Shown one piece after another: positions 2,356 through 59,239 of a stretch of 64,000 nucleotides of DNA; the first letter of the stretch is position 1, and each line of letters starts with the position of its first letter. The notes beneath the pieces were generated by a model. That model was not told the DNA's origin. It did not search any database and worked only from the letters and a program-made list of their open reading frames with translations. Source of the stretch: an uncultured archaeon (lineage in GTDB: Archaea; Thermoplasmatota; Penumbrarchaeia; JASLWR01); assembly GCA_964342815.1 (NCBI GenBank), contig CAYFHS010000010.1, positions 2,534-66,533 of the forward strand, read 5' to 3'. A program made the position numbers and the translations under genes.

Positions 2356-2369
2356 GATCCGTCCTCCGT

Positions 2370-3635
2370 TTACCTTACCACCCGGGATCCATCCGGAACG
2401 TCATCTCTGACCTGGACGAACGCATCGATTGCGCAGCCGGAGCCAACAACAACCCCTCCGTCGATTACTGCCCCATGTCCCAGCACGGTATCCTCCCCCA
2501 CAATGCATCCTATACTATTGGGAAATCCCATATTCTTATTGATTCCCATGTCTATATCGGTTATCTGTGTGGAGACGTTGGGACTGCATTTGGTACCGCA
2601 GGCAAGTACCGAATTCTCTATAATACCCCCCGGAGCAACTGCCGCGTCATCCATGATAATTGAATTGCTGATCTTCGTGAAAGCATCAACGGTAACATTG
2701 TCACCAATTGACGTGGACGGGTATATACAAGCATTTGGCCCGATATCACAACCTTCGCCGATAAGCACAGGTCCCTGGACATAGCAGTTGGACCGTATAA
2801 CAGTTCCCTTTCCCACTGATACGTCACCCATAAGGAACGCCCCTTCTTCCACCACGCCTTCATTGCTGGATTTCAATCCCGTCAGGGCCTGGCTGTTCAT
2901 GAATAACAGGTCCCAGGGGTAAACTGCATCAAACCAGACATCGGTCTTTACTGCCTCAATATCTATTCCCTTGTCTATCATGTATCCAATGAGTCCGGTC
3001 ATGTTGTTCTTTTCAATACCCTGCATCTCTTCCAGATAATCGAAGATGCGGGGATCCAGCCGGCAAATACAGGTGAAGATCAGATCCGAGGACCTTCTAA
3101 TGTCCTTTTGCCACATGGAATGTGTGAGAGTATGCTGAATACCAAAATGCCTCGGGTCCTCACTGGACCGAGGGGTCACTTCGATCTTTCGAATAAAATT
3201 GTTCTGGAGAGTAACCACACCGTATTTAGAGGGAGTGTGGGACGAGGTCACAACTACCCTGTAAGGTTCCCTGCCGGGGCTGAAGAGTTCTTTAAGTGTT
3301 AGACTTTCAATATAGTTATCCCCAGGAAGAACCACGAACTCACCGGTGAGCAAGTGCTTGACCTTGCCCAGCGCATGCGCGGTCCCCAACTGCCTTTCCT
3401 GCTCGACAAAGGTCAAATTGACATCATATTCCCCGCCGTCACTAAAATAACTGAGTATCTTTTCTTTTTTGTATCCCACCACCATTATGATATCCTTTAT
3501 TCCAGCGCTGGAAAGGGCGTGGACAATATGTTCAAGGATCGGTCGGTTCGCTATTGGGATCATTCCCTTTGTCATGTTATTTGTCAAAGGGCGTATTCTC
3601 AAACCCTCTCCCGCAGTCAGTATTACAGCTTTCAC
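2370..3635 (-). CDS. glmU: Bifunctional sugar-1-phosphate nucleotidyltransferase/acetyltransferase (archaeal GlmU-like)
   Basis: KAVILTAGEGLRIRPLT nucleotidyltransferase motif, EQERQLGTAHAL, and C-terminal hexapeptide repeats. Adjacent to glmS. GTG start at 3635 preceded by AGGTGA RBS. Confidence 0.85.
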   Translation of the reverse strand: MKAVILTAGEGLRIRPLTNNMTKGMIPIANRPILEHIVHALSSAGIKDIIMVVGYKKEKILSYFSDGGEYDVNLTFVEQERQLGTAHALGKVKHLLTGEFVVLPGDNYIESLTLKELFSPGREPYRVVVTSSHTPSKYGVVTLQNNFIRKIEVTPRSSEDPRHFGIQHTLTHSMWQKDIRRSSDLIFTCICRLDPRIFDYLEEMQGIEKNNMTGLIGYMIDKGIDIEAVKTDVWFDAVYPWDLLFMNSQALTGLKSSNEGVVEEGAFLMGDVSVGKGTVIRSNCYVQGPVLIGEGCDIGPNACIYPSTSIGDNVTVDAFTKISNSIIMDDAAVAPGGIIENSVLACGTKCSPNVSTQITDIDMGINKNMGFPNSIGCIVGEDTVLGHGAVIDGGVVVGSGCAIDAFVQVRDDVPDGSRVVR

Positions 3636-3757
3636 GCGATCACCTTTCGGGTACAACGTCAGCTCCCTATTATCTGAGGATATAATATACTTTTAGGTAT
3701 TAATTTGCATCATAATTCCGGACCAAAATCATAAAACCCCCTCTTGCAATCACGAGT

Positions 3758-4390
3758 ATGATGAGCATACAGCAACTTGATGAGCTGAAGAGTTTCAATG
3801 CGGCGATATGTGTGGGATTGGAAAACTTATCGAGCCTTGATCCATCCATTGTTGCCGAAAATGCAATGGCGGAATATAATAAGGACCACGGGACTTTCAG
3901 CGTCAGCGTGTTGGGCAAGAAATTTACCCTGGATCCCCAAAAAAGAATATTGTATTATCCCTATGAAATGGACGATCATGTCATGGGAAGTATGGCAGTA
4001 TTGATACTCCATTATCTCGCCAATTCCCGGCCCGGACCTTTCCGGAACAGACTCATCTCGTACCGCGAACTTCCTAATGGCATGGTGTTCTATGGTGCCT
4101 TCAGAAATATCGCCATAGAACCTATCGCACAAACATTCGGAGATGACATTAGTGCTTTTGAAAAACGTGCCGTTGCACTTGGGGGCCGTAAAGTAGATCA
4201 CGGTGAGATGGGTTTTGAATTTCAATTCTTCCCAAGGTTAGCGGTAACAATCGTCATGTGGGCCGGTGATGATGAGATCCCTGGCTCAGCGAATATCCTT
4301 TACGACGCATCCGCTCCCGATCAAATGCATACGGAAGACCTGGCGGAGATAGGTGAGGTTATAACCCACCTGCTCGTACATTCAGGGTAG
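3758..4390 (+). CDS. DUF3786 family protein
   Basis: LILHYL, ISYRELPNGMVFYGAF, FPR..V.IVMWAGDDEIPGSANILYD and TEDLA patterns typical of DUF3786. Confidence 0.75.
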   Translation: MMSIQQLDELKSFNAAICVGLENLSSLDPSIVAENAMAEYNKDHGTFSVSVLGKKFTLDPQKRILYYPYEMDDHVMGSMAVLILHYLANSRPGPFRNRLISYRELPNGMVFYGAFRNIAIEPIAQTFGDDISAFEKRAVALGGRKVDHGEMGFEFQFFPRLAVTIVMWAGDDEIPGSANILYDASAPDQMHTEDLAEIGEVITHLLVHSG

Positions 4391-4442
4391 AATGATTCTT
4401 TTGGATAAGTTTGGCTCTCCTGGGAAACAGATCCATTTATAC

Positions 4443-4790
4443 TTAATCTTCAGCGGGAGTCTCGTCCTCTTCCCCGGGAAGTTTTACCTTCATCACATCA
4501 ATAACGATGAGCATAACCCCGAGCACTGCAAGGATTATGGCAACCGCCATGGCGATGCCTCCTCTCCTCTCGATATTTTCAGCATTATCCAGGGCATCGG
4601 AGCGTGAAGCTTCCAGTTCGGTTGCACCCGCTTCCAGCCCACCATTTTTATAATGATCGATCAGTTCATCGCTTTTTGTATTATAGGTATCTCTCGCGTC
4701 AGCTTCTTCGCCCCACGCATAAATAGCTACGCCCACACCTGCGGCGGCTACTAAACACAGAACGATTCCGGCAATTAATTTTATTCCCAT
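4443..4790 (-). CDS. Small hypothetical membrane protein (two hydrophobic segments)
   Basis: 115-aa ORF with GAGGTGA RBS and N- and C-terminal hydrophobic helices. Confidence 0.7.
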   Translation of the reverse strand: MGIKLIAGIVLCLVAAAGVGVAIYAWGEEADARDTYNTKSDELIDHYKNGGLEAGATELEASRSDALDNAENIERRGGIAMAVAIILAVLGVMLIVIDVMKVKLPGEEDETPAED

Positions 4791-5102
4791 TTTTTCACCT
4801 CTGTTGCTCCTTTTTTTTGAATTATTGTATATTAATTGTAGTTTTTGCGAATCAATTATACGAGGATGTATTTATTATCTTCGGCGAATGAATCATTCCT
4901 ATTAAATGTGATTTACATGTTGGAAATTTGTGATTTTCAAAGGTTTTCCAAAATTCCCAAATATCATTTTACTTGTATTACTTTTTGGATTTGCACTCGA
5001 AAAAGGTTGTCTCCCACTGACCATGTTTGGAAATTATCACGAAAAATAAATTATACTTTCGTAAGGTTACCTTCATCTTTACTGCATCAAGTCGGAGATA
5101 AT

Positions 5103-6551
5103 ATGGCATTAAAAGTGTACAATACATCCAGTAGAGAGATGGAGGTATTCGAACCCCTTCAGAAAGGAAAGATCGGTATGTACGTATGCGGACCTACCAC
5201 TTATGATCTAAGTCACATGGGTCATGCGAGAGCATACGTGGCATTCGATGTGATCCGCCGTTACTTGGAAAATATCGGATACGACGTTACTTACGTACAG
5301 AATTTCACCGATGTCGATGATAAGATTATCGCTCGCTCGAAAGAGAGAGGTATACCGCCACTGGAATTTGCCCAGCTATATGTGGACGAGTACTTTAAGG
5401 ACATGGATATGCTGGGAATAATGAGAGCGACCCACCATCCGTATGCATCGAAGACGATAGATGATATGATTGCACTGGTAAAAGGTCTAATTGAAAAAGG
5501 GTTTGCTTACAACGTAAAAGGAAATGTGTATTTTTCGATCTACAAGGCTCTCGACAAGGTGGGGCAGCTGACACACCAGTCCCTGGATGAAATGCTGGAC
5601 GGAGCCCGGGTCGAGATAAATCCCGAGAAGGACCATCCCAAGGATTTCGCACTCTGGAAGAGAGCCAAGGAAGGTGAGATTTCCTGGGACTCTCCCTGGG
5701 GACCCGGACGTCCCGGTTGGCATATCGAATGTTCCACCATGTCCATGAAATTTATCGGGGAAACGCTGGATATCCACGGGGGCGGACAGGATCTTATTTT
5801 CCCACATCACGAGAGCGAGATATTGCAGTCGGAATGCTTCACCGGCAAGAAGTTCTGCAGGTACTGGCTGCATAACGGATTCGTGAGGATCGACAATGAG
5901 AAGATGTCAAAGTCTCTCGGGAACTTCTTTACCATCCGCGAGGTTTTGAAAAAATATTCTCCGGCCGTGGTTAGGTTCTTCTTTCTATATACTCATTATC
6001 GGCAGCCCATCGATTACAGCGGGGAACATCTTGAGGAAGCCAAGCGGAGCCTGGAGAGGATTCAAACAGCTATCATTAACGTAGAGAGATATCTGAACCC
6101 GGAAATCGGTGGCGGTGAGGCCCCCAACTCAGAATCGAATATAGTTCGGGAAGCGAAAAAGGCAAGGGATAAATTCAGAGAGTCCATGGATGAAGACTTC
6201 AATACCCGACGTGCCATAGCCGCCATTTTCGAGCTGACCCGCGAGATCAACCGAGCGGTTTTGGAAAGGATCAATAAAGGCTCTATCCGATCGGCATTTA
6301 TTATATACTGCGACATGCTTGGTATTTTAGGATTGTCCATCGAGATGATTAAGAACTCTCAATCACTTGGTGCTGCAGACGAAGAGTCTACTCTCGAGAC
6401 CGGCCTTATCGAATTGTTGATCGAGCTACGTAAAGAACTTAGGAAGGAAAAACAATGGGCTCTCTCCGATACCATAAGAGACAAGCTGAAAGAAATGGGT
6501 GTGATTCTCGAAGATACCAATAACGGGACAGTTTTCAAGAGAATCCGATAA
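5103..6551 (+). CDS. cysS: Cysteine--tRNA ligase
   Basis: MYVCGPT, HMGH (HIGH), DFALWK, GRPGWHIECS, DIHGGG.DL.FPHHE and KMSKS motifs. Likely start MALKVYNT at 5103 after GGAG. Confidence 0.98.
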   Translation: MALKVYNTSSREMEVFEPLQKGKIGMYVCGPTTYDLSHMGHARAYVAFDVIRRYLENIGYDVTYVQNFTDVDDKIIARSKERGIPPLEFAQLYVDEYFKDMDMLGIMRATHHPYASKTIDDMIALVKGLIEKGFAYNVKGNVYFSIYKALDKVGQLTHQSLDEMLDGARVEINPEKDHPKDFALWKRAKEGEISWDSPWGPGRPGWHIECSTMSMKFIGETLDIHGGGQDLIFPHHESEILQSECFTGKKFCRYWLHNGFVRIDNEKMSKSLGNFFTIREVLKKYSPAVVRFFFLYTHYRQPIDYSGEHLEEAKRSLERIQTAIINVERYLNPEIGGGEAPNSESNIVREAKKARDKFRESMDEDFNTRRAIAAIFELTREINRAVLERINKGSIRSAFIIYCDMLGILGLSIEMIKNSQSLGAADEESTLETGLIELLIELRKELRKEKQWALSDTIRDKLKEMGVILEDTNNGTVFKRIR

Positions 6552-14702: not shown

Positions 14703-17700
14703 ATGGCGACAACCGGTCCCGCCTATAGGCTTTTGTCTATTATTCTTGTCTGTGTAATGTGCCTTAACGGCATCCCACCATTCACGGATCCCGCGAACGA
14801 AGCAAGCGCAAGTATGTCCAAGATATCAGGTCTGGACAGTGAGAATCTATTTCATCAAGTATGGAGTAATAAAACGGATTTGAACAGCACTCTGAGAGAA
14901 GAGCCCAGAGATATTTTTACTACCGGGGGCTTTCTGGACCTGGACAACGATGCCCTGTCCGAGATCGTGGTGGGCGACGCAAGCGGCTGGTTCTATATAT
15001 ATGAATTTAATGGAACAGATAATAGCTATACTGAAGTGTATTCAAATGATACCGGGGGTTCCACAGTTTATGCCGTAGCCTATGGTGATCTGGACGGCGA
15101 TGGCGACCTGGAGATAGTCACCGGGGGCGATAACAACCAGCTAAGGATATACGAGTGGAACCAAAGCAACGGCAGCGATAATTTCACACTTGCAAATTCA
15201 AGCAATCTTGGGGGAGTTGTGAGAGATATTGAGATACGGGACCTGGATAATGATTTCAAGAATGAAATGGTCGTAGGATGGGACCAGGGCGTAACAATCT
15301 ACAGTTTCAACCAGACATATCATTTTGCAGAGGAGTTTCACTACGGAACGGATCATCCGGTTTATTCCGTTGCCACAGGTGACTTTGATTCTAACCTGAA
15401 AACGGATGTGGCGGCGGGTGAGCTGAATCACAGCTCGATATATGTATTCGAGAACATAGCCCAAGATGCATATAGCCCGGCGTTACTACAACCCTACCAG
15501 ATGAATCAGGGAAATGCCTCAGGAAATGTTCTTTCTCTCGAGACCGTGGATATCGATTCGGATGGAAGGGAGGAGCTGGTATCCGGTACTAACACCGGTG
15601 AATTGTACGTCATCAATACGCCGAACAACTTTGCCAATATCACTTTCAGACAGCTGGACAAACTAGGTAGCAGTGAAATATGGGATATTTTCATAGAGGA
15701 TGCTGATGTGGACCAGAGAGCTGATATATTCGTTGCAGCGGATCACAATTACCGAGTATATGATTATGAATACGTGTCAGGTAATATTGGTTTATTGAAC
15801 AGTTATGACAAACTTGTACTATCCGGACCGCTGGGATCGAACATATCACCTGCCCCCAGTTCCATATGCGTAGGGGATCCCGATGGTGATGGAAAAGGTG
15901 ATGCGATTATAGGATGTTTCGGCGACGCCAATGATTCAATGCTCTTCGTGCTCGAAAGAAACGTATTTAATGACGATGCGGGAGTTATTGGAGTAAATTT
16001 TCCTATTGATGGAGGGACTCTTCCCACCGGTACATATACTGTAAATTCCACTGTGAAGAACATGGGCGTAAGACAGGAAAACATTGATGTGAATTGTTCC
16101 ATTTACGATTCGAATATGAATTTAATATATTCGTCAGATGAATTTGGCATCCAGCTTAACTCCGGAGAACGGGCTTACGTGGACTTCGATTTTCCCAAAT
16201 GGGCGGCGAATGTTCAGGGAACATATCACATTAACGTTAGCACCGATTTGCAGGTAGATGAGAACCGGTCAAACGATTTTAAAAATATCACTATCAATAT
16301 TACGAACGTTTACGATCTCGCGGTTCAAAACGTGAGCTTCAGCGGAATGGCACCATACGGCGAAGGAGAGAATATATTCATTAACGCATCCATCCGCAAC
16401 GAAGGAAACATGCTGGCCAATAACGTGTCGGTATATCTCATGATAAACAGCACTCAAGGTTATCATTACAATGATACCGATCAGAAAATAAACCTCAGTG
16501 CTGGAAATACAACTGAAATCGCATTTACACCTGCCTGGTCTCCCCCCGCTGAAGGGATATATACGGTCAATATTTCGATAATGTGGGACCTTGATAACAA
16601 TATTTCGAACAATTATTCGCATCAGCCTTTGGTTGTGAACAATACAGTGGACATATCGGCGGAAATCAATAAACTTGTCAGTTCCTTCACAATTATCGAC
16701 CCGTGGGACGGATTTGACATATTCAACACAAACAGCAGCCTGATCGTGAACGGTACCCTGAAGAACTTGGGTAACAAAGAAGAAACCTTCAATGTAACTT
16801 TGAACATAACCGACGACAACGATACCAGTGTATTTCTGAACGAAAAAGAACTGACACTTAAAAAAGGTGAGCTGGCGGGCGTGGAATTCGATAAATGGAA
16901 CACGGGAAATATAAGTTACGCGAACTACACGATTAACGTTTCCGCCCACGAGCCCGACGAAAATCAAAATACAAATAACAACTATTCAACAAAACGAATT
17001 AGGGTCTGGGACATGTACGACCTTGAAGCATCCAATATTGAACTGAACCGATCGACTCCCACGAACAGCAACATTTCAATGCGTATCAATGCCACAGTAA
17101 AAAATACCGGAAATCTGAACCTCTCCGATTTTACCGTCCGGCTGGAGATAAGAAATTCCACGGGAGCCCTTGATCATTCGGAATCCACCAGAGTTCAAAC
17201 CACGGTTAATCGGAGTGAAACCATTACTGCTTCCTTCAATGTGAACACCCCGGCCACTGAGGATGATTACACGATAAACGTAACCGTTCTCTATGAAAAT
17301 GATACCTACTTGGCAAATAATTTCACCACTCTCGCTATCAAAGTAGACGACCTGCATGATATCAGTATGGAATCCCTAACGTTCCAGGGCCTGAACGTCA
17401 AATCCCATTATTCAACAGGTGTTCATTCTTTCGGAGCCACTGCCAGAAATCTCGGAAATACCAAGGAATCATTCGACGTCGAGATAAAGGTGGGTCACTC
17501 GAGCGGTAACAACGTAACCCTACTAAACGATGACATGGAAAACGGCACAGGCGCTTGGGAGCACTTTTCCTGGGAAGGGGATGATCTCTGGCACATGGTC
17601 AATTCCAGCAATTCGTTTCCGGGTAATCACAGCGCCAATACGAGCTGGTGGTTCGGCAGCGAGCAATCCGGTCATTATAACAACGGCACAAAGGCCATCA

Positions 17701-20700
17701 TTTACCAAACAATAGACCTCGCTGACTCTTTCTATGCAAGTGTTGATTTCTGGATGAACTATTCTTTCGAGACCGGAGATGACTACTGCCGCTTGCTCAT
17801 CAACAATGATACCACACTTGATCCCGCGAACGCTTCATGGACCGAAATCGACGGCCCGTATACCGGGAACTCCACCGGTTGGATATGGAATGATATCAAT
17901 ATCTCATCATATGCCGGCCAGAAGGTCCAGATCGGATTTTATGTCTTTTCCGATTCAGATAATGACGATTTCAGAGGATTTTATCTTGATGATCTGCGGG
18001 TCAATATTACACAGACCGCATTTGACCGCCAGAATACGGTGAACAAGGAATTGGAGCCTAACAACAGTGTCATCATTTCGGATGCCTATAATTTCGCCCA
18101 GGAGACCGATTATATTATAATTTTCAAGTCCACACTGCATAACGATGAGTTGGACGGCAATAATATAACAACTTGGAAGTTGAATGTTTTAAATTACCAT
18201 GATATTGGCACCACGGGAACCGTAATGGTAACGCAGCGGAACGAGGAGATACGAAATTCCGCCTCTTTCGAAGGTCCCAACGATCCTGCCTGGAGTCATG
18301 GCGGGGTCAATGACGATTGGGCTAGGGGAATGCCAGTATCGGGTCCTATGATGAGTCATTCCCCGGAGAACGTTTGGGGTACCAACCTTGAAGGGAATTA
18401 TTCTCCCAACACTTCATCCTGGCTTCGAACACCGCTTCTGAAGAATATCCCGTGGGGTTCCGAGATTGAGTTTTGGGTGTGGTATTCCACGAATTTTTCG
18501 CTGAACGATATAATGAGTTTTCAGATTTCCAACAATAATGGAGCTACATGGACCACTTTGAATGAATATACCGGGTCCACACTGGCATGGAAGAAAGAAA
18601 ACTTTCCTCTGGGGGATTTCTACGGTAACCTGTCCTGCCGCTTCTTCTTTTCCAGTGATGGTCAGGTCCAGGGTGACGGGTTTTATATTGACGATTTCAG
18701 GATCATATCGAAAGCTCCATTCCATATAGGAGAGACAGCATCCTTCGACGTAACTATAGAGAATTTCGGAAACGTCCCAGAAATCAATCCAGAAGTATTG
18801 ATGACCGTTACGAACACCGAAAACCTGTCCTACAAGTTCACACAGACAAAGATATTGGGGGCGACGCTTCAACCGGGGGACAGTCACACTTTCAACTGGA
18901 ATTTCCTGGCTCCGGAAAACGGCACATACCGGCTGAACTTCGACACTGTGCTTCCCACCGATGTGGATTTGAAGAATAACCGGAGTATTGGTTCCATAGT
19001 AATGTACAATCATACGGATATATCAGTAAAGGAAATAACCGAACCATCTGATGATAATGTATTCCGCATGGGTGAAATCCTAAGGATAAATGCTGTGATC
19101 GCCAACGAAGGGACGTGGGATTGGGACATGGTTCCCGTGACCTTCAATATCACAACCAAAGTGAACGGCAGGATCATGGTGAAAAATCTCAAAGTATACA
19201 ATCTGTCACTGGCAAGGAATGAGACAGGTAACGTAAGTCACAATTTCACCATACCTTATGTGCAAGGCGCCCGGTATGATATCAGGGTGTCGGTACAGCG
19301 AAACAATACCCTGGATATGAATTTTACCAATAATAACCAAACCATTTTCGTTTATGGATTGGTTGTTGAAAAAACACCCGCCTTATTCGGTTACATTAGC
19401 TCGAAATTCGACGGAAAACCCATAAAGCTCGCTCGTGTTTCAGGCTCTATCGATGAAGCCTCTCCAAGCTGGACACAAACCGATGCCAGTGGATTCTACT
19501 GGTTCCAGTTGGACGGTGGCGATAGCGTGGAGATTAGTGTTATCAAGGAGGGTTTCGTCACGCTGACCACCTCTGTGAAAATAGTCCTGGATAATAATTT
19601 CCAACCCATGAACCTCCGGAAGGATTTGTCTCTCGATGTGTACAATAATGTACCTACGGTCAGCATAACAGAAGCACCGGAATTTGCCCTTAAGGGTGAA
19701 TCCGTGATCTTCCATGTCGGATTCGGAGACGCGGACGCGGGGCAAGTTCATTTTTTCAACATTTCGTCTAATCTTTCAGGCAGTATCGACATTGACGGCG
19801 GAATGCACCTAGGCACCAGTTCATTATCTTTTAACAGCTCTCAGCTTAAGCCGGGCACGCACAGGATTTTTGTTAACATTTCCGATCTATACAGCAGTGC
19901 ATCTACAAACTCCACACTTGTTATCTACAGAGTTAGAAATATTGACGAGAACTCTGGTGAACCGACATCGGTGTGGTTGGAGGGAGAATATGGAGGAAGC
20001 GGGGAAGTGCTCCTCATACACAATAATACGAAACCTGTGAATTGTGAAAATATATCCCATGATCTGGATTCGGTGGGGCAGTTCGCCACGGTAAATATGA
20101 CCGGACAGGGGCGGATCATATGGGCTCGGATATTGTTCAAATATTCCGAGGATGCCTTTCCTCCAGGAACTTATCAGGAAGATCTGGGATTATTTTATTA
20201 CAATGATACCGATGGAAAGTGGATTAAACTTGAGGATACGGTCATGGACGGGGAAAACAACAGTATATACCTTAATCAAACTGATCCGCCCCGGGACCGA
20301 ATATATGCTCTCCTTGTAAAACGAGACCTCATTCCACCCACGATCACTGATGTTTGGCCAATTGACGGGGCCAGTGATGTGGACGTTGTCTCCAATTACA
20401 CCTTGGTATTTTCCGAACTTGTCGATCATAACACCATAGAGAGCGCAATTGTGGTTCTGGACAGCGGTAATAACGAGATCGAATTCGATCTGGATGCAGT
20501 TGATGATGCAGTGAACCGTACCACCACCGTAACGCTGAATTTCACGGAATCGCTGGCGTATCTTCACACATATATCTTAAATATCAGTGCCAATCTCAGC
20601 GATCTTGCAGGTAATATCATCCAGGAATTTTCATTCAGGTTCACAACGATAAAGGTTCCGGTCAGTACCGGTACTCTTATCGTGAGGGTCCGAAACGAGA

Positions 20701-23462
20701 CCGGTGTACCGGTGAAGGATGCGTATATTGGGATCGATGCCGAAGTTTACAAACATACATCTTCGGGGGAAATATCCAGAAAACTGAACCCAGGCATCCA
20801 TATCGTTAGGGTGTTGGGTAAAGATTATGGTGGAATAAGATACGAGGGATATCTGGGAGAAGTGGAGATAAGATTGAACGAGACCACAATGCACCAGGTC
20901 GCCCTCCAGAAATGGATCGAACCGGAAGCCCCTGCCCCCTGGGGTATCCTCATAGGTAATATTACCGACGAGGACGGACTTCCCATCGCTGACTCCGAAA
21001 TAATAATCACGTGGATTAACAAGACCACCTTTAACTACACCGTGGGGAACAACAGCAGCGTTCCAGCCAATTTCACTCATTACAAATGGATCGACAACAA
21101 TACAATCGAGGTCACAGAAAACTTCACCGAGCATTACACAACGGTCATCACACCTGACGGTTCGTTCTACATCATACTCGATCCCGGCAATTATACTCTC
21201 ACACTCAAAGCCGATGGTTATCAAACGCAGACCATGGAAGTAATCATCTCCGGTGACGGCAATAAAACATGGCTGAACCTCTCCCTCAAAAAGAAGTCCG
21301 AATACGGCTATCTCGTGTTCACAGTGGTGGATTCAAATGGCGATGCGCTTACGGGAATGGATCTGGTCCTAAAGGGAGAAAAGAACAGGACGGAATTCGA
21401 GCTTTATGAAGAAGAACCGGGGAAATACCGATCCACCGGACTGCCGGAGGGTAATTACCTGTTAACGGTGGTAGGAAAAGGATACAGGGATTATAATGAA
21501 CGGATCGGAGTCACCGCCGGCGAGGATGGCAGGATGAACGATATAGGGAATATAACGATGTGGAAAGAGGTCGAGATCCATCCCCCTGCGGTAAGCAACA
21601 GCGCGGACCCCTTCATTTTAATCGGAATAATAATTCTTGCGGTTCTGGTATTATTGATAGTTGTTCTGATTCTTGTAAAACGTTCGAAAGAGAAAAAGAT
21701 GCTCTTGGATAAGGATAAACGACCGATACTCTGGCTTGACGAGATTTCTCTCGAGGATGTTGCTCTTACCGGAAATAAGGCTGCATGTCTCGGTGAAATT
21801 ACAACAAAGACAAGCGTTCCCATACCGCCAGGCTTTACCACCACCGGAGCTGCCTTCGAGATGTTCATGTCCGGGGAAGCACTCTCCGAAAAATTAAATG
21901 AAAAGATCGCGAAATTCGAAGACCCTGAAGATGAAGAGCTACTGGGGAAGATCGGAAAACAATGCCGTTATGCCGTTCTAAAAACCGAAATGGACCCTGA
22001 GTTTGAGAAATTCATAAGGTCATTCTATGATGAACTAGTGGTGAAATACAGGGAAATCATGGGTGAAGGTAAGGAAAAAATTAAGGGAAAAACCAAGGAA
22101 GAACCCGAGGAAGAACTTGAGGAAGATCCCTTTATGGCAGTTCGTTTATCGGTTGATGAAGATAAGATTCCCAAGGACTTATTCGCCAGCGGCCAACGAT
22201 CATATCTCAATATTCAGGGAGTGGAAAGCGTCATAGAAAGGATAAAGGAATGTTACTCACTGACGTTTACCGACGAAGCTATATTACACAGGCGGCTTGG
22301 TGAGATCGATCACAAGACCGAAGGAATTTCAATAATCGTACAATTGATGGTATTTTCCAAGGGTGCCGGTACCATGTGTACCCTGGATCCCATGGATGGA
22401 AACAATGAGCTGATATCTATAAAATCCGCCTACGGTTTGGGAGAGTACGTTGTGGAAGAGAAGGTCAAACCCCATTCCTACCTTGTTAACAAAGACACGA
22501 TGGAAATCGAGGAAAGGGAGATCACACCCCTGGGAATCATGCTTACCCGGAAACCGGAGGGTGGTGTCGAGGAGGTGCCAGTATCTCCGGAAGACTTCGA
22601 AACGGAACTTCTTTCGGACGAACAGGTAACTGAGCTGGCCGCTTATGCAAAGGAGATCGAGGCTCATTTCGGAAAGGACATGGAGATGGAATGGGCGTTG
22701 GACGAGAGGGACGGAAAGCTGTGGCTGATCTACTCCACGGCGGAGCTGTATTGGTCCTCGAAACCCAAAGAAACCGAGGAGATGGTGGAATTCACCTGCC
22801 CGGACTGTGGAGATACAGTTGAGGAAACGGCTACGTTCTGCGATTCCTGTGGCACCGATTTCGAAACTCCGGAACGGACGGTTGTTGAAAAAGTGGTCGA
22901 ACAACACATAGAGGAGGAGTTCCTCTGCCCCGAGTGCAGTGAACCTGTGGGCGCGGATGCGAAAAAATGCGATGCCTGCGGTGCTGATTTCGAAACACCG
23001 ATGATGCGAACCACAAAAGAAATTCCAGAAGAAGCGGCCGTTGCGGCATTGGAACCCGAAATCCTTTCGGAGGAAGAGATCGAAGATATGGACCTTGGGG
23101 AGCTGGAAGAGGAGACCGACGATATCTCTCTCGACCTTGATGATCTTGACGACCTTGACGACGAAGTATCCCTGAGTGCTCTGGATATGATGGTATCCAG
23201 CATGCTCGGTGAGGACGAAGAGGGTGAATCTGAAGAAGATTTAGAGGAAGAATCCGCGGGAGAACCATCGGAAGAACCTGAAGAACCACCAGCCCCCGAG
23301 GATGAGGCTGAGGAATCCGAAGGGGATTTCGATATTACCCTTGATGACCTGGACCTTGATGAAATCGAGATCGAAAGTGATGATGAAATGGATCTTGATA
23401 TCGATCTCGACGACATATCAATTGAAGACCTTGAGACAAGCCTGGACGAGCTGGGAGATTAA
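14703..23462 (+). CDS. 2,919-aa single-pass surface protein: FG-GAP/VCBS propeller, CARDB/Ig-like repeats, two jelly-roll (MAM/immune inhibitor A-like) domains, Ig-like, TM, then cytoplasmic PEP-synthase-like ATP-grasp domain, double zinc ribbon and acidic tail
   Basis: Signal peptide, GDLDGDGDLEIV-type repeats, repeated N.TV.N.G...D.N..NN CARDB motifs, GFYLDD/GFYIDD jelly-roll ends, TM at ~21612-21677, GNKAACLGE..PIPPGFTT and AYGLGEYVV (PpsA-like), and CPDC..CDSC / CPEC..CDAC. Confidence 0.85.
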   Translation: MATTGPAYRLLSIILVCVMCLNGIPPFTDPANEASASMSKISGLDSENLFHQVWSNKTDLNSTLREEPRDIFTTGGFLDLDNDALSEIVVGDASGWFYIYEFNGTDNSYTEVYSNDTGGSTVYAVAYGDLDGDGDLEIVTGGDNNQLRIYEWNQSNGSDNFTLANSSNLGGVVRDIEIRDLDNDFKNEMVVGWDQGVTIYSFNQTYHFAEEFHYGTDHPVYSVATGDFDSNLKTDVAAGELNHSSIYVFENIAQDAYSPALLQPYQMNQGNASGNVLSLETVDIDSDGREELVSGTNTGELYVINTPNNFANITFRQLDKLGSSEIWDIFIEDADVDQRADIFVAADHNYRVYDYEYVSGNIGLLNSYDKLVLSGPLGSNISPAPSSICVGDPDGDGKGDAIIGCFGDANDSMLFVLERNVFNDDAGVIGVNFPIDGGTLPTGTYTVNSTVKNMGVRQENIDVNCSIYDSNMNLIYSSDEFGIQLNSGERAYVDFDFPKWAANVQGTYHINVSTDLQVDENRSNDFKNITINITNVYDLAVQNVSFSGMAPYGEGENIFINASIRNEGNMLANNVSVYLMINSTQGYHYNDTDQKINLSAGNTTEIAFTPAWSPPAEGIYTVNISIMWDLDNNISNNYSHQPLVVNNTVDISAEINKLVSSFTIIDPWDGFDIFNTNSSLIVNGTLKNLGNKEETFNVTLNITDDNDTSVFLNEKELTLKKGELAGVEFDKWNTGNISYANYTINVSAHEPDENQNTNNNYSTKRIRVWDMYDLEASNIELNRSTPTNSNISMRINATVKNTGNLNLSDFTVRLEIRNSTGALDHSESTRVQTTVNRSETITASFNVNTPATEDDYTINVTVLYENDTYLANNFTTLAIKVDDLHDISMESLTFQGLNVKSHYSTGVHSFGATARNLGNTKESFDVEIKVGHSSGNNVTLLNDDMENGTGAWEHFSWEGDDLWHMVNSSNSFPGNHSANTSWWFGSEQSGHYNNGTKAIIYQTIDLADSFYASVDFWMNYSFETGDDYCRLLINNDTTLDPANASWTEIDGPYTGNSTGWIWNDINISSYAGQKVQIGFYVFSDSDNDDFRGFYLDDLRVNITQTAFDRQNTVNKELEPNNSVIISDAYNFAQETDYIIIFKSTLHNDELDGNNITTWKLNVLNYHDIGTTGTVMVTQRNEEIRNSASFEGPNDPAWSHGGVNDDWARGMPVSGPMMSHSPENVWGTNLEGNYSPNTSSWLRTPLLKNIPWGSEIEFWVWYSTNFSLNDIMSFQISNNNGATWTTLNEYTGSTLAWKKENFPLGDFYGNLSCRFFFSSDGQVQGDGFYIDDFRIISKAPFHIGETASFDVTIENFGNVPEINPEVLMTVTNTENLSYKFTQTKILGATLQPGDSHTFNWNFLAPENGTYRLNFDTVLPTDVDLKNNRSIGSIVMYNHTDISVKEITEPSDDNVFRMGEILRINAVIANEGTWDWDMVPVTFNITTKVNGRIMVKNLKVYNLSLARNETGNVSHNFTIPYVQGARYDIRVSVQRNNTLDMNFTNNNQTIFVYGLVVEKTPALFGYISSKFDGKPIKLARVSGSIDEASPSWTQTDASGFYWFQLDGGDSVEISVIKEGFVTLTTSVKIVLDNNFQPMNLRKDLSLDVYNNVPTVSITEAPEFALKGESVIFHVGFGDADAGQVHFFNISSNLSGSIDIDGGMHLGTSSLSFNSSQLKPGTHRIFVNISDLYSSASTNSTLVIYRVRNIDENSGEPTSVWLEGEYGGSGEVLLIHNNTKPVNCENISHDLDSVGQFATVNMTGQGRIIWARILFKYSEDAFPPGTYQEDLGLFYYNDTDGKWIKLEDTVMDGENNSIYLNQTDPPRDRIYALLVKRDLIPPTITDVWPIDGASDVDVVSNYTLVFSELVDHNTIESAIVVLDSGNNEIEFDLDAVDDAVNRTTTVTLNFTESLAYLHTYILNISANLSDLAGNIIQEFSFRFTTIKVPVSTGTLIVRVRNETGVPVKDAYIGIDAEVYKHTSSGEISRKLNPGIHIVRVLGKDYGGIRYEGYLGEVEIRLNETTMHQVALQKWIEPEAPAPWGILIGNITDEDGLPIADSEIIITWINKTTFNYTVGNNSSVPANFTHYKWIDNNTIEVTENFTEHYTTVITPDGSFYIILDPGNYTLTLKADGYQTQTMEVIISGDGNKTWLNLSLKKKSEYGYLVFTVVDSNGDALTGMDLVLKGEKNRTEFELYEEEPGKYRSTGLPEGNYLLTVVGKGYRDYNERIGVTAGEDGRMNDIGNITMWKEVEIHPPAVSNSADPFILIGIIILAVLVLLIVVLILVKRSKEKKMLLDKDKRPILWLDEISLEDVALTGNKAACLGEITTKTSVPIPPGFTTTGAAFEMFMSGEALSEKLNEKIAKFEDPEDEELLGKIGKQCRYAVLKTEMDPEFEKFIRSFYDELVVKYREIMGEGKEKIKGKTKEEPEEELEEDPFMAVRLSVDEDKIPKDLFASGQRSYLNIQGVESVIERIKECYSLTFTDEAILHRRLGEIDHKTEGISIIVQLMVFSKGAGTMCTLDPMDGNNELISIKSAYGLGEYVVEEKVKPHSYLVNKDTMEIEEREITPLGIMLTRKPEGGVEEVPVSPEDFETELLSDEQVTELAAYAKEIEAHFGKDMEMEWALDERDGKLWLIYSTAELYWSSKPKETEEMVEFTCPDCGDTVEETATFCDSCGTDFETPERTVVEKVVEQHIEEEFLCPECSEPVGADAKKCDACGADFETPMMRTTKEIPEEAAVAALEPEILSEEEIEDMDLGELEEETDDISLDLDDLDDLDDEVSLSALDMMVSSMLGEDEEGESEEDLEEESAGEPSEEPEEPPAPEDEAEESEGDFDITLDDLDLDEIEIESDDEMDLDIDLDDISIEDLETSLDELGD

Positions 23463-24079
23463 TTTTCCCAGGTATCGGTGTGGGTTAATTTATAAAGCTC
23501 CGCCTGTCGGTACATTTCCAAAGCATAGTCGATATGCCCTACCATTTCGCTCTTGGGCGTTTTCCCCACTATTTCACCGTAGTATGGTTTTACCTCGCCG
23601 TCATCGTCCTCTTTCAGGGTTATTATGATAAAGGTCGGTGCCTCATGCTCTTCACCATTTTGAAAATCATAAGTATTCCACGCTTTGTCCTTCTCCTGGT
23701 CCTCTCCCCAGTAAACCAAAAAGAACTCGACCTCGTCTTCATAATCATCTTCGATATCCTGAATAACGGGCAGCATCTCGTCACAGGCAACGCAGCCGTA
23801 TTTTAGAGAAAAGTCGATGAAAACCACTTTTTCTTCCAGCTCGTCGAGAACCCATTGCGGATGAGCTGCCCCGTTTGCCGTCTCGAACCGGAATTCCACT
23901 TCACTCACCGGGGTCAATCCGAGGCATGAAAGGCATTTCGGGATCGAGATCTCTTCGTTGTAACCGTAACCGCCCAGTGCGATTCCACTTATCATCAAGG
24001 CCAGGGTTATTGTAGCCAGGATCAATTGTTGTGGTCTTTTTCTGGTGGCATCTCCGGTCTTTTCCGGTTTTATTTCCAT
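23459..24079 (-). CDS. Membrane-anchored thioredoxin-fold protein
   Basis: N-terminal TM, CLSC, then VVFIDF...CVACDEMLP and a cis-Pro-like APTFIII. Confidence 0.75.
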   Translation of the reverse strand: MEIKPEKTGDATRKRPQQLILATITLALMISGIALGGYGYNEEISIPKCLSCLGLTPVSEVEFRFETANGAAHPQWVLDELEEKVVFIDFSLKYGCVACDEMLPVIQDIEDDYEDEVEFFLVYWGEDQEKDKAWNTYDFQNGEEHEAPTFIIITLKEDDDGEVKPYYGEIVGKTPKSEMVGHIDYALEMYRQAELYKLTHTDTWEN

Positions 24080-35237: not shown

Positions 35238-38200
35238 CTAAAAACTGTAATAGTCCGTCTCTCCATCGGTTCCGGGGGATCCGAGATCATCCGTTTGTTC
35301 AATATCATTTTCTTCATCATCTATAATTTCTAATTCGGTCAGTTCGGCAAACTCTCCCAGTTCTTCCATCTCTTTTAATAATTCTCGCTCGTCCCTTTCC
35401 CTTTGCTCCTCTTTTTTTGCAGGTCCATCTTCCTTTTGCCCTTCCTCATCGGCAGCTTCAGATAATATTTTCGTTTTTTCGGATTCTTCGAATTCATCTT
35501 CTCCATGGTCATCTTCATCATTTTCATCGGCATTCTCTTCTTCGATCTCATCATCCTCTTCGATTTCCATCGATTCATTTCCCAATTGGTAATCTGTATC
35601 GTCAGCTTCTCTTGAAAGACTTATTGTTTTAGGGGTTCGAGCCGGTTTGTGATCCTTTTTTCTATCGGTTTTTTTTGACACATTCATTTCATCTTTTGCG
35701 GGGGGATGAGGATTTACCGGTTTTTTCCTGAAGATGAGTATCAGTATTATTATGATCGAAAGTCCTAATATCCCCACAAGCAGGTAAAGATTCATCTCGA
35801 CCTTGTCCTCATCTTCCCCGCTGAATTTCTCTATGTCAGCGCTTAGTTCGTTCTCGGTGTCACTCAGAGATTGGTCCAGTTGTTGAAGTTGATCCAGTAT
35901 CAGGTCCAATTTTGTCAGTCTTTCAAGGCTCTGGTTTATTCTATTTAGTCGTTCAATGGTCTCGTTGTAATAATTTCCAATATTGGAATTGACCTGTAAT
36001 AGCTCTTGTTGGACAGAGCTGTCGTGATCGCCAATTTCTGAAATCATGCTGGATATTCCTTCATTCAATTCCGACAGGTGCAGCGTGCTCAGAGAATTCA
36101 GCAGAGTTGACAGGTTTGATATTATTACCCGAATTGAAGCGTCATGAACGGTCACATCATCCGTAATTGAGACGAGTTCATCTCTGATACCCGATATATT
36201 CTCCATGAGCTGTTCATCCGTCAGGTTATTCCCGGTCCCGATCAATCCCGTCAATTCAGCCAGCAATACCTCGATATCGGAATCATGGTCCGTGATATTG
36301 TCATCGAGATCACCGAGTAACTCGTATGATTCGTTCAGTTTATCGAGAATAATTCCCTTTGTGAGATTATGCTGATCGACCATTGTCGAAGACAATAACA
36401 CGAGGGTATCATTTATTACACCACTGCGGATGCTGAGATTGTTCTCCATGGAAAGGAGATTCCCCATCAATCCGGTCAAATTTGTCTTCAAAGAAGTATA
36501 GAAATCAATGGTCAGGGTTTCCAGGCCGCTTATCTGAGCGGTTAATGATTGATTTACAGTGGTTAAATTCGAATCGATCTCACTGAGAACCGTATCCATC
36601 TAATTGCGTAAAGCATTATGTTCCGTGCTAATGTTGCTTGATAGATTCGTAAACTTTTCGGTAAATGTGAAATTCAATCCCGACATATCATTTGTAATAT
36701 TCGATACCCTGCTCCTGATCTCCTCCGCCAAGGACGAATTAATCCGCGCCAATTCTGCCATCAAGTTAGTGTCAATCCCCGTAAGGTTGTTCTCGATATT
36801 ATCCATACGACGGCTAAGAGTTACATTTACGCCTGATAACTGGCTTGTGAGATTGTTCAATGAGGAGGGGATGGTTGAATTCAAATATCCCAGGTCAGCT
36901 TTTATATTAACGATACTGGTGTTCATATACGATAGGTTGGATTGTATGTTTATGATTCTATTCTGGACGTCGTTTACGGTGTTATTGATACTTGTCAAGC
37001 TATCGGTGATGTTGCCAAATTCCGAATTCATATCATTTATGTTGCTGAAGGGATAAGGGTCGGTACCATCGCTTATGCCGTCGTTGTCGTCGTCACCGTC
37101 CGCATTATTACCGATACCATCGAGGTCGCTATCGAGCCATTCCGAGGCGTTCAGCGGAAAATAATCCTCTCCATCCGGTACCCCGTCTCCGTCATCGTCG
37201 CTGTCAACGAGATTGCCTATCCCATCTCCGTCAAGGTCGGAGTCCGCCACCATGGCCTCAATGGGCGATAGCAATGATTCGCCTCCCAGCGGGCATACGT
37301 TTACTACCGAATAATAATATGTTACGCCGGCAGTAATATCCAGGTCCGTGTAATTCATACCGGTTACATTTATCAGCCGGCTGAGTGAGCTCGGGGCAAG
37401 TCCGCGGTATATACCTGTAAAAAACGGACTTCCGTATGAGCTGGGCCAGAAAAGATTGATCCCGGGATCAGTTGAGGTAAGATTTAATGAAAGCTCGCTT
37501 ATCCGCGGTAGATAACTCCTATTTATAAGATACGTGTGTCCAGCTTCACCTCCCCCGTCGTCATCTCCATAAGCACCTATCAGTATGTCGTCATATCCAT
37601 CTCCGTTAACATCTCCCGCGCCGGAAACGGAACGCCCCGAAAAATCGCTAGCGTCTTCCCCTATAAATGAAGCACTGGCATTGCTCAGCTCGAAATTCGC
37701 GGTCCAACCCGAAGGCTTGCCGAAAACAAGGTAGCTGTGACCGGCGCTTGATCCCCCGTCATCGTCTCCATAGGCACCTATTAGTATGTCAGCATAACCG
37801 TCACCGTTGACGTCCCCCGCCCCCGAAACGGAATCGCCCGCCAGATCATTTGTATCTTCCCCGATGAATGAAGCACTGGCATTTGTCAGATTAAAATCCA
37901 TTACCCATCCGGATGTTTTGCCAAAGATCAGATACGCCTGGCCCGAACCCACTCCTCCATCGTCATTCCCTTTTGCACCGATCAAAATGTCGTCGTATCC
38001 GTCTCCATCAACGTCTCCAGCTCCCGAAACCGAGTATCCCGCAGTATCGTCAGCCGCTTCTCCGATGAATGACGCACTGGCGTTTGTAAGCTCGAAATCC
38101 ATGATCCATCCTGATGAGCTCCCGAAAATAAGATAGGTTTGGCCTGCACTATTTCCCCCCTCGTCATTTCCGCTGGCGCCGATCAATATATCATCGAATC

Positions 38201-40817
38201 CGTCGCCGTTCACATCCCCGGTTCCGGCAATTGCGCCACCAGAATAATCCAGACCGTTCTCTCCCAGAAAAGAAGCATCCACATTCGCAAGGGCCACATC
38301 CATTTCCCACCCTGCGGATTTCCCGAAGATCAGGTATGTCTGGCCCGCCGTCCCTCCACCTCCGCTGTTCCAGTATGAGCCGATCAGAATATCATCGTAT
38401 CCATCATTGTTAACGTCTCCGGCCCCTGCCACGCGTCTTCCGGCGTTATCACCCCCGCCTTCGCCGATGAAGGATGCATCTGCATCGGAAAGGTCCGCAT
38501 CCATTTCCCACCCGGATCCTTTGCCAAGAATGAGGTATGTTTGGCCGGCCAGGGCACCGCCGTCATCATCACCATATGCTCCGATTAAAATATCATCGTA
38601 TCCATCGCCATTCACGTCTCCCGCCCCCGCAACCGAGTATCCGGAATAATCGTATGCACTTTCGCCCCACCACGAGGCGTCGGCATTTGAAATAATTGTA
38701 TTACCTGACCACCCTGATGAGTTACCAAGAAAGAGATATGTCTGTCCAGCTTCGGCGCCTCCATCTTCATCTTTGTAGGCCCCGATCAAAATATCATCGT
38801 ATCCATCTCCATTTACGTCACCCGCTCCCGCCACGCAATAGCCGGCCCAATCGCCAGCATCCTCTCCAATGAAGCCAGTACCGAAATCTCCAAGGTCCAC
38901 ATCACGCCTACTCCACATTTCTTCATCTTGCATGTCCGGATGGGCATCATATATGTTTTGTATACCATCGCCATCGATATCCGAATCTATCGAATCACCA
39001 ATCCCATCACCGTCGGTGTCATATTCGTAATAAAATGATATCGTACTTGTCATGGGTGAAAGATCACTGTCTCCATCCATTGCGGCTAAACCATAGAAAT
39101 ATTTTTGGCCGAGTTCAATATCGTTGTCCTCGTAATCAACAATATTTCCTGAAACGAAAGCGAGAGTATTGTAGTTCGTTCCATCCAAAGATCGGTAAAC
39201 CTGATAACCTATTATAGGTCGATTCCAGTAGACCGGTGGTTTCCAGGATAATTCAATGGAATTTCCGTCATTTGTAAGTTTTCCGGAAAGTCCTCTGGGC
39301 TTAGGTGGTCTGCTTCCCGGGAAAATGAGATATGTTTGGCCTGCCTGGGAGCCACCTTCTTCATCCCGGTCGGCACCGATCAGAATATCGTCGTATCCGT
39401 CTCCGTTGACGTCCCCCGCTCCTGCAACAGAATAACCGGAACGGTCATCACTATCCTCGCCGAGGAATGATGCTGAAGCGTTCGCGAGTTCGACATCCAT
39501 TGACCAGCCCGACTCTTTGCCGTATACCAGATATGTCTGACCGGCATCACTACCTGCCTCCTCATCCTGGTAAGCACCGATAAGTATATCGTCAAACCCG
39601 TCACCGTCCACGTCCCCTGCACCTGCCACAGAAAAACCTGCCCAATCGTTTAAATCCTCTCCCAGAAAGGATGCGTTTGCGTTGGACAGATCAGCATCCA
39701 TGGCCCAACCGGCGGGTTTGCCGAATATCAGATAGATCTGACCTGCCTGAGAACCCCCGTCCTCATCCTTGTAGGCTCCGATAAGAATATCATCGTATCC
39801 GTCTCCATTCACATCCCCGGCACCCGACACCGAATTTCCCGAGTAGTCACTTGAATCCTCGCCGATGAAAGACGCTGATGCGTTCGTCAGTTCAAAATTC
39901 ATGGTCCAGCCGGATGCTTTTCCAAGAATGAGGTATGTCTGGCCCGCATTGGAACCGCCGTCCTCATCACCCAGAGCCCCGATTAGAAAATCATCGAATC
40001 CGTCAGCGTTCACGTCGCCGGCCCCCGCCACCGAATAACCGGCCTGGTCGCCTGCATCCTCGCCGATGAATGATGCGGAGGCATTGGTGAGATTGACATC
40101 CATGGACCAGCCGCTATCGTTGCCGAATATGAGGTAGGTCTGTCCCGACCAGTAACCTCCCTCGTCATCGTGATGCGCTCCCACGAGTATATCGTCGTAT
40201 CCGTCTCCGTTGACGTCACCGGCCCCGGAAACTGAATATCCCGAATTGTCATCCTCATCTTCTCCGATGAACGATGCATCGGCGTTGGAAACTTCGAAGT
40301 CCATTGTCCACCCGTCGGCTTTACCCAGTATGAGATATGTCTGACCGCAATCGGTTCCCGCGTGGTTATTCAAATACCCTCCAAGTAGAATATCATCGAA
40401 TCCGTCACCGTTCACATCCCCCGCTCCAGCCACGGAAGCTCCCACAAAGTCGACATTATCTTCTCCAATGAATGATGCATCGGCGTTCAAAAGATCAAAA
40501 TCCGCGTACCATCCGGCTTCACTGCCAAATATGAGGTAGGTCTGGCCTGTACGGTCGCCACCCTCGTCATTGCCTTTCGCACCGATCAATATGTCGTCGA
40601 ACCCGTCACCGTTCACATCCCCGGCTCCCGCCACGGAGAACCCTGACCAATCGCTGGAGGATTCTCCCACGAACGAAGCATGTGAATTAGCAAGATTGAA
40701 ATTCATCCGTAACTCGGAAGAGGGCTGCGCTGCAGGCATGAACATGATCATACCTGTAAAACTTACTCCTAAAAGTATGAAAACCATAAGAAAAGGACCG
40801 ATTGTTTTTGTAGCCAT
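35238..40817 (-). CDS. Integrin-alpha-like FG-GAP double beta-propeller surface protein with FnIII, Ca-binding DxDxDG repeats, coiled-coil stalk, TM and acidic tail; split by an in-frame TAG at 36600-36602
   Basis: 14 repeats of G.SV.GAGDVNGDG(F/Y)DDILIGA (2 x 7), each set followed by an FnIII-like domain and DxDGDG repeats. ORFs 36600-40817 and 35238-36599 are in the same frame, separated only by TAG, and the heptad pattern continues across it. Confidence 0.85.
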
Positions 40818-50612: not shown

Positions 50613-50799
50613 TACCGTATCACCATTCCGGATTAATTTTCCATTTATTGAGAAAAGTTCTGATGTCCGTTAGTATTTGAAAAGATGGGTCATATAGAGA
50701 CCTTCATCATAATTATTTATTACCCCGAAAAAATCATGAATTATCCACAATTTATTGGGCAAACAGAATTGTCTCTTGAAGAGCGGCTGTACGCAAAGA

Positions 50800-54873: not shown

Positions 54874-54967
54874 CTACGATTACACGGTATACAATATATT
54901 TTATGTTTTCTCTTTATGTTTCCACCGATAATACAAAGTCATGCTTGGGAAGAAGATTCTGGAATAT

Positions 54968-59188: not shown

Positions 59189-59239
59189 GTGAACCAATAC
59201 CATAATACATGATATACGAAATATTTCATATTTTCGCAA

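Follow-up and report, generated by a model that had tools for sequence, protein, structure and literature searches.

The locus described here raises the question of what a domain of a metabolic enzyme is doing behind the membrane helix of a giant surface protein. The window, that is, the whole stretch of 64,000 nucleotides that was analysed, comes from contig CAYFHS010000010.1 of an uncultured marine archaeon of the Thermoplasmatota (its genome is called G000 below), and all coordinates are positions in it. One uninterrupted open reading frame (ORF), evident from the ORF list and its translation, codes for a protein of 2,919 amino acids (P0001, the window protein), which would be a giant, heavily N-glycosylated type-I surface protein. 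Between its only transmembrane helix and two zinc ribbons lies a PPDK_N domain, the ATP-grasp domain that in PpsA stands together with a swivel domain carrying the phosphorylated histidine and a domain that binds phosphoenolpyruvate (PEP). The explanation that accounts best for the evidence given below, and to which we allow about an even chance, is that this domain has become a pseudo-dikinase, a membrane-tethered regulatory or scaffold module which would not transfer phosphate from ATP to histidine and which most likely still binds an adenine nucleotide. The features of the gene are as follows.

14703..23462, + strand: whole gene including the stop codon, type-I membrane glycoprotein of 2,919 amino acids (ORF list, translation)
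14703..21611, + strand: N-terminal hydrophobic, signal-like segment and ectodomain (Pfam, sequon count)
21612..21677, + strand: single transmembrane helix, residues 2304-2325, followed by KRSKEKK (hydropathy scan, motif position)
21765..22772, + strand: PPDK_N ATP-grasp domain, residues 2355-2690 (Pfam at 230 bits, AF2 model, Foldseek, dN/dS)
22725..22745, + strand: LIYSTAE in place of the canonical LQARPET, with Gln and Arg both lost (alignments)
22797..22982, + strand: two CxxC...CxxC zinc ribbons, residues 2699-2717 and 2742-2760 (Pfam DZR, Zn_Ribbon_1 and Zn_ribbon_3)
22983..23459, + strand: acidic tail of 159 amino acids, 46% Asp or Glu (composition)
23073..23105, + strand: tail motif 1, EEIEDMDLGEL (five-row alignment)
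23166..23210, + strand: tail motif 2, VSLSALDMMVSSMLG (five-row alignment)
23394..23459, + strand: C-terminal motif 3, LDIDLDDISIEDLETSLDELGD-stop (five-row alignment, dN/dS)

The assignment of the domain is far beyond chance. The Pfam match to PPDK_N (PF01326) has an E-value of 6e-68 and 230 bits against a cut-off of 27, and it covers model positions 3-318 of 328; conserved sequence begins even upstream of the Pfam boundary, with ILWLDEI at residue 2342 (nucleotide 21726). The AlphaFold 2 (AF2) model has a mean pLDDT of 86.5 and a pTM of 0.78, the ATP-grasp part being confident and the ribbons weaker. Its best matches in Foldseek were PpsA (2ols, E 8e-28), then HpeI (9goj) and the ATP-binding domain of RPH (5hv6, TM-score over the target 0.90), so that model and matches both give an ATP-grasp fold. 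Neither the swivel-His domain (PF00391, at E-values up to 0.1) nor the PEP/pyruvate-binding barrel (PF02896) had a Pfam match in the window protein. Dikinase chemistry in cis is impossible because the chain is without the swivel histidine. The original prediction, made from the letters alone, had described a single transmembrane helix followed by a full-length PPDK_N domain, two CxxC-CxxC ribbons and a very acidic tail, and had taken the swivel-His and PEP domains to be absent; all of this is borne out, PPDK_N and the ribbons (DZR) by Pfam. Every motif that it quoted was also located. The motifs start at residues 2342 (ILWLDEI), 2357 (GNKAACLGE), 2479 (AVRLS), 2494 (FASGQRSYLN), 2545 (IVQLMV), 2577 (YGLGEYVV), 2660 (MEMEW) and 2675 (LIYSTAE), and the membrane helix reads FILIG...LILV.

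The protein satisfies the description of a type-I single-pass protein in having a signal-like N-terminus, one membrane helix in the hydropathy scan, positive residues on the inner side and sequons on the outer side only. All 110 NxS/T sequons are in the ectodomain, for which 38 are expected from composition, and the C-terminal part of 594 amino acids has none; the Asn content of the two parts is 10.2% and 1.0%, respectively. As all the sequons precede the membrane helix and KRSKEKK directly follows it, the PPDK_N domain, the ribbons and the tail would be cytoplasmic, a placement which the predicted topology fits. The first 2,280 residues contain five FG-GAP_3, three CARDB and three CarboxypepD_reg domains besides Big_5 and PEGA (Pfam).

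The degree to which the domain has departed from a working PpsA was judged by aligning the domain with 119 near-length PpsAs and with 141 diverse proteins that represent clusters at 50% identity. Of the 58 columns in which these 141 are conserved to at least 85%, the window protein is changed at 21, its orthologue in the congeneric metagenome-assembled genome G001 (2,913 amino acids, 73% identical overall) at 19 and that of a third lineage, P0124 (2,905 amino acids, 41% identity in the cytoplasmic part), at 23. Among the 141 representatives the median is 3 differences, the 90th percentile 8 and the maximum 25, and a single one reaches 21. At the 31 columns conserved to at least 95% the three proteins show 10, 9 and 11 changes, the representatives a median of 0 and a maximum of 12. 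The QxR motif reads YST in the window protein, NAR in G001, MCR in P0124 and QAE in P0126, a shorter fourth member, and Tyr2677 and Thr2679 occupy columns that are 97% Gln and 93% Arg in the 141 representatives. The Gln and Arg of QxRP are Gln335 and Arg337 of PPDK in numbering and role, and a PDB entry with the title '2dik R337A mutant' is among the structural matches. DIEW reads MEMEW, MEMEW, MEMVW or MSVEW among the four fused members. Changes common to all three full-length members are RSS to RLS, S2493L, the loss of the Gln of FAGQQ and the replacement of DIEW by MEMEW or MEMVW, together with changes at S2520, R2525, F2559, G2586 and D2591, and P0124 has in addition lost GLGE as well as the DIEW glutamate.

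A few residues of the nucleotide site are kept. In the numbering of RPH-Lm, from an alignment to 5fbs, Arg2481 (the arginine of VRSS, in a motif whose RSS now reads RLS) corresponds to Arg117, Ser2499 (Thr in P0124) to Thr136 and Glu2663 to Glu297, this Glu of DIEW being kept in three of the four members; Lys2359, the lysine of a GGK that now reads GNK, is matched to Lys22 through this common motif. All three full members retain VQxMV and the equivalents of Lys22, Arg117 and Thr136. In RPH itself these three residues are needed, whereas the change Glu297Ala is tolerated (PMC4844700). The earlier reading that K, R and E are kept while QARP has turned into YSTA was thus confirmed in the alignments. 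The ratio of nonsynonymous to synonymous substitution rates (dN/dS, Nei-Gojobori, G000 against G001) is 0.136 for the whole gene, 0.110 for PPDK_N (79% amino-acid identity), 0.123 for the zinc ribbons, 0.122 for the acidic tail and 0.036 for the last 40 codons, all approximate values because dS is about 1.1 and near saturation. The PPDK_N domain is under purifying selection and is not decaying neutrally. Purifying selection on the fold, with the phosphate-holding residues kept, makes it probable that a ligand pocket is retained, and the fixed replacements common to the members (RLS, LF) point to a new constraint rather than to drift.

It is possible, if somewhat doubtful, that the domain is a pure scaffold, the ATP-grasp fold serving as a folded spacer or docking surface with nucleotide binding gone. 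The nature of the ten altered positions among the 31 most conserved would agree with this, since the RSS serine, the SFAGQQ loop, Gly2586, Asp2591 and the Gln and Arg of QxR are among them; so would the further loss of GLGE and of the Glu of DIEW in P0124, and the fact that sister orthologues function without PPDK_N. However, the retention of the Lys22, Arg117 and Thr136 equivalents and of VQxMV in three of three full members would be unexpected if the pocket had drifted freely, and a dN/dS of 0.11 also speaks against it.

That the domain is still active in trans is unlikely. In such a case the ATP-grasp would pyrophosphorylate the His-swivel of another protein, as in HpeHI, and the membrane tether would localise the chemistry. 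There is a precedent: the stand-alone ATP-grasp HpeI, which has no swivel on its own chain, works with a separate swivel protein, HpeH (PMC12167813). HpeI is moreover the second-best structural match, Lys, Arg and Thr/Ser are kept, and swivel domains exist in G000 on two proteins, an RPH-like one and a PpsA. But HpeI is soluble and has a dedicated partner, and its identity to the window domain is 26% (Foldseek), whereas no orphan swivel protein (PF00391 without PPDK_N) was found in G000, G001 or the genomes of two further genera, G002 and G003, an absence that is unproven because these genomes are 89-93% complete. The PF00391 matches in them (2, 1, 1 and 2, respectively) each lie in a frame that holds its own PPDK_N, which goes against the suggestion in the original prediction of a separate His-domain partner. 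No swivel-domain gene stands beside the giant gene, the RPH-like gene of G000 is without a counterpart in G001, three of the four members no longer have the QxR Gln (the window protein has lost the Arg too), and fast divergence at conserved sites is atypical of a working enzyme. RPH itself resembles the window domain in the fold of its ATP-binding part and in the three kept residues (5hv6, 5fbs; PMC4844700), but it has its own swivel and substrate domains, and the equivalent of its Gln309 is Tyr in the window protein. The domain is a member of the PPDK_N / ATP-grasp group that fails the defining features of PpsA and PPDK and, as far as tested, those of two-component dikinases.

The PPDK_N genes that G000 has of its own are different: a long-type PpsA with intact QARPET (G000:C3:1436-4972, minus strand), the RPH-like protein (G000:C45:16172-18610, minus strand) and a large multidomain protein (C45) whose PPDK_N domain is of the PPDK_N-only type. 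In a frame of 1,001 amino acids at G000:C45:249-3251 (+), a long N-terminal region is combined with a PPDK_N-only domain in which LQIRP is kept, and a swivel domain is absent.

From where the domain came can be read in some detail. Its nearest relatives are three-domain PpsAs of about 795 amino acids (e.g. P0005 and P0006; solved structures 2ols and 8a8e), to which it is 38-44% identical, and the PPDK_N domains of G001-G003 outside the fused gene have only 26-30% identity to the insert. In a tree of 72 rows the four fused sequences have a single origin: they group together with an SH-aLRT of 100, their common stem is 0.46 changes per column long, and the group is nested within a PpsA clade of 27 rows (support 96). 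To judge from the tree, a canonical three-domain PpsA was the source of a single capture, after which the domain diverged fast. Unlike PpsA, it has neither a swivel-His nor a PEP domain, is changed at 21 of the 58 conserved positions, has lost QxRP and is tethered to the membrane behind an ectodomain of 2,300 amino acids.

The presence of the domain is optional. The orthologue in G003, of a sister genus (2,584 amino acids), has an ectodomain 45% identical to that of the window protein and then, in order, a membrane helix, an acidic linker and two zinc ribbons. The tail motifs follow as MSISSLDQMVSSLM and LNIDLDDISMEDFEKSLDELAE-stop, and PPDK_N is absent. The orthologue in G002, of a third genus (2,499 amino acids), is 41% identical over the first 900 residues, and its cytoplasmic part is an acidic tail with degenerate but recognisable motifs, IGIEDLDSMVSDILG and DIDLDGIEMPSIEDIEKELEGL-stop, without ribbons and without PPDK_N. 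The ectodomain tree is (G002,(G003,(P0124,(window protein,G001)))), and since the split between proteins with and without PPDK_N has a support of 95/98, a single change is sufficient to explain its presence; that this change was a gain rather than a loss depends on midpoint rooting of the tree, which is an assumption. Under the same rooting the order of accretion would be the acidic tail with its motifs, then the ribbons, then PPDK_N. Because two orthologues of sister genera share the ectodomain, the membrane helix and the tail motifs and do without PPDK_N, the comparison makes the domain a late, optional insert and not the core output. The proposal that an enzyme domain has been repurposed thus stands in so far as the domain is derived from PpsA, has lost QxRP and is under purifying selection, and falls in so far as it was to be the output module of the protein.

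It is accordingly very unlikely that the protein is an outside-in receptor, in which an ectodomain ligand would signal through the single membrane helix to PPDK_N as the output. An ectodomain, a single helix and a cytoplasmic domain of nucleotide-binding type do resemble receptor kinases and pseudokinases, but the output would be dispensable, as the G003 and G002 orthologues lack it, and no downstream signalling gene is linked to the locus, where the neighbours are housekeeping genes. Signs of dimerisation were not found either, though none were looked for.

What all the orthologues have in common on the inner side is the tail. DZR (PF12773) matches residues 2699-2760 with 30.2 bits in the whole protein and 34.7 bits in the C-terminal piece (cut-off 27.3), and the four CxxC pairs of a double ribbon begin at 2699, 2713, 2742 and 2756. 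In a five-row alignment (A1) the ribbon Cys columns are invariant, as are the D, L and G of EEIEDMDLGEL and the residues S.S.LD.MVS of motif 2, while motif 3 is nearly invariant. By this alignment and the dN/dS values the C-terminal acidic motif is the most conserved cytoplasmic element across the five proteins. A six-frame regex scan of the genome for the tail found this gene only, apart from a loosely similar acidic stretch in a frame of 2,517 amino acids on C13. A predicted complex between PPDK_N (A2, residues 1-362) and the acidic tail (A1, residues 95-230) had a score of 0.00, which counts neither for nor against binding in cis. The C-terminal L-x3-L-x2-L also resembles a MIM-type helix that would bind a MIT/Vps4 protein; this idea was dropped because a search of the G000 genome, which is 88.9% complete, found no MIT domain (PF04212).

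The reading of the domain as a pseudo-dikinase can be set out on this background. The older part would be the cytoplasmic tail, which consists of three short conserved motifs in an acidic stretch, to which one or two ribbons were added later; it would be the conserved 'business end' and probably docks a cytoplasmic partner. In one sub-lineage the ATP-grasp domain of a PpsA would have been captured once and inserted between the membrane helix and the ribbons, leaving the swivel-His and PEP domains behind. The insert then diverged fast and lost many universally conserved positions, retaining its fold, the phosphate-holding Lys, Arg and Thr(Ser) and the VQxMV motif. Phosphotransfer from ATP to histidine would no longer be performed, adenine nucleotide binding would most likely be kept, and PPDK_N could be modulating the tail downstream of it, for example by coupling it to the ATP/AMP state.

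Eukaryotic receptor pseudokinases and integrin tails offer an analogy, being single-pass surface proteins with a degraded nucleotide-binding domain or short tail motifs, although folds and lineages are unrelated. On this analogy a more specific version can be imagined, which is rather unlikely: the PpsA-derived pseudo-dikinase would sense ATP versus AMP by closure of the ATP-grasp and so gate the engagement of the acidic C-terminal motifs of an FG-GAP integrin-like adhesin with a cytoplasmic partner. If true, it would mean inside-out control of surface adhesion by energy charge and an archaeal counterpart of a receptor pseudokinase, built stepwise from tail to ribbons to pseudo-enzyme.

Several points weigh against the pseudo-dikinase. 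Nucleotide binding is deduced from four or five kept residues, and retention of Lys, Arg and Thr/Ser is equally expected of an active enzyme. G001 and P0124 keep the Arg of QxR, and it is the window copy only that has lost both residues. The clade sample consists of three full sequences and one piece of 363 amino acids, so that different losses in different lineages are weakly based. The near-saturated dS and the assumed rooting, mentioned above, count on the same side, and a partner for the tail and control of the tail by PPDK_N are steps taken ahead of any direct result.

The fusion itself is real. The identical window protein is recorded from 6 contigs, G001 has the same fusion, the JGI contig L031 and the short JGI contig P0004 also hold it, and with P0124 the frame is open in three lineages; in all, three or four lineages have the fusion in common. 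The junction from membrane helix to PPDK_N is spanned without a differing letter by Logan contigs from other samples and studies (X3, 21104-21786; X4, 21557-21717 and 21703-21853). Contigs of one metatranscriptome library (X7) cover 21682-21943, which reaches into PPDK_N, and parts of the tail, which is a weak hint of expression by which transcription is not shown; gaps in the contig cover of runs X3-X5 and X7 carry no evidential weight. The chance that the fusion is an assembly chimera or a unique, neutrally decaying product, either of which the original prediction had named as fatal to it, is negligible, since the junction is spanned with 100% identity in independent runs and assemblies, 6 contigs hold the exact protein, three lineages share an open frame and PPDK_N has a dN/dS of 0.110, the sole oddity on the other side being P0126, a call of 363 amino acids that starts inside the domain and is perhaps a broken copy. 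This family member (P0126, also P0280) lies on contigs of up to 24 kb and may represent a fourth lineage in which the copy is broken or shortened.

The architecture is unusual. Among 271 proteins with a PPDK_N match, a hydrophobic helix directly before the domain was found only in this fused family. Among the best 150 of 11,579 representatives the tail is common only to P0124 and the piece P0126, and of these representatives, none of the 21 scanned in which PPDK_N starts away from the N-terminus is membrane-tethered; they are permuted (swivel first), contain inteins or have other N-terminal extensions or fusions. A search of the GTDB representative genomes with the tail alignment found only G001 and G003, plus one JGI contig whose C-terminal part is identical to P0002. 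Length-limited protein searches (1,605-5,109, 262-835 and 836-2,385 amino acids) gave no further fused form, only the piece P0004 in the range 262-835, and this is weak evidence.

PPDK_N-only proteins and pseudoenzymes are already known kinds, and databases contain many PPDK_N domains that stand without partner domains, most of them unexplained. What this case adds is a readable history, in which the ATP-grasp of a working PpsA would have been captured once by the tail of a giant archaeal surface protein and would have lost its hallmarks under selection. The close orthologues without PPDK_N are natural controls, which makes this a clean case of a metabolic-enzyme domain turned pseudoenzyme. 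In the literature searched, no membrane-tethered archaeal PPDK_N and no PpsA-derived ATP-grasp behind a giant archaeal ectodomain was found, although the supplements of bioRxiv 10.1101/2023.11.21.568195 could bear on the point. That preprint, in the legend of its Supplementary Fig. S1, lists PPDK_N among the frequent domains of the giant membrane-associated proteins of Omnitrophota; these are bacterial, multi-pass and far larger. Zinc-ribbon cytoplasmic tails on archaeal surface proteins, or these tail motifs, were likewise not found described. With only three genera of uncultured marine archaea in it, the family is tiny, and the direct impact is therefore limited.

The gene is flanked by housekeeping genes. 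It is preceded by those for the PolD large subunit and methylmalonyl-CoA mutase; on its downstream side, a gene for a small membrane protein that matches thioredoxin weakly is accompanied by Band7/NfeD, ribosomal L10/L1/L11, NusG and FtsZ. Neither a swivel-domain gene nor a signalling gene was found near the giant gene. The base plan is typical of the lineage and the PPDK_N insert alone is special, because at least five other large single-pass proteins of G000 have 1-5 cytoplasmic zinc ribbons after a C-terminal membrane helix, some followed by acidic tails (C30, 1,391 amino acids; C1, 2,039, 1,749 and 1,159; C6, 933; also C32). The giants of C30, C1 and C6 share with the window protein the ectodomain, the single helix, the F.CP.CG...C..CG..F ribbon or ribbons and often the acidic tail, and the end of the C30 protein, FDSLLEGLEDEL, resembles that of the window protein. 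None of them has PPDK_N, however, and their tail motifs differ. There would thus be a larger class of archaeal surface proteins, as yet undescribed, with zinc ribbons and conserved acidic motifs in their cytoplasmic tails, which suggests that archaea of this lineage have a docking system in the cytoplasm. A protein on C13 has an acidic tail without ribbons.

Some other observations were made on the way. P0179 (505 amino acids) is a soluble PPDK_N protein, 28% identical, with QARP intact and then an acidic linker and a CxxC...CxxC zinc ribbon, so PPDK_N beside a ribbon occurs outside the fused family too. Four PpsA representatives (P0193, P0176, P0273 and P0232) have an intein at the same place of PPDK_N, with LAGLIDADG inside three of the four, and in all four the Pfam match resumes at model position 116. 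P0239 (1,987 amino acids) is a complete three-domain PpsA fused to a triosephosphate isomerase domain, with an N-terminal hydrophobic segment at 10-28. Convergent with the giant gene is a gene at 23459-24079 (-) for a protein of 206 amino acids with only a weak thioredoxin match (E 0.011); G001 has it in the same place (203 amino acids), and G003 has a PKD protein there instead. A second integrin-like surface protein of the window, 1,405 amino acids with 9 FG-GAP repeats (E 6e-81), is encoded at 36600-40817 (-). Farther on, a phage-tail-sheath-like gene (Phage_sheath_1, Phage_sheath_1C) at 44588-46018 (+) is adjoined at 46497-63412 (-) by four tandem ORFs of 1,371, 1,357, 1,423 and 1,390 amino acids, which are nearly blank in Pfam (one weak Ig and one PKD match).

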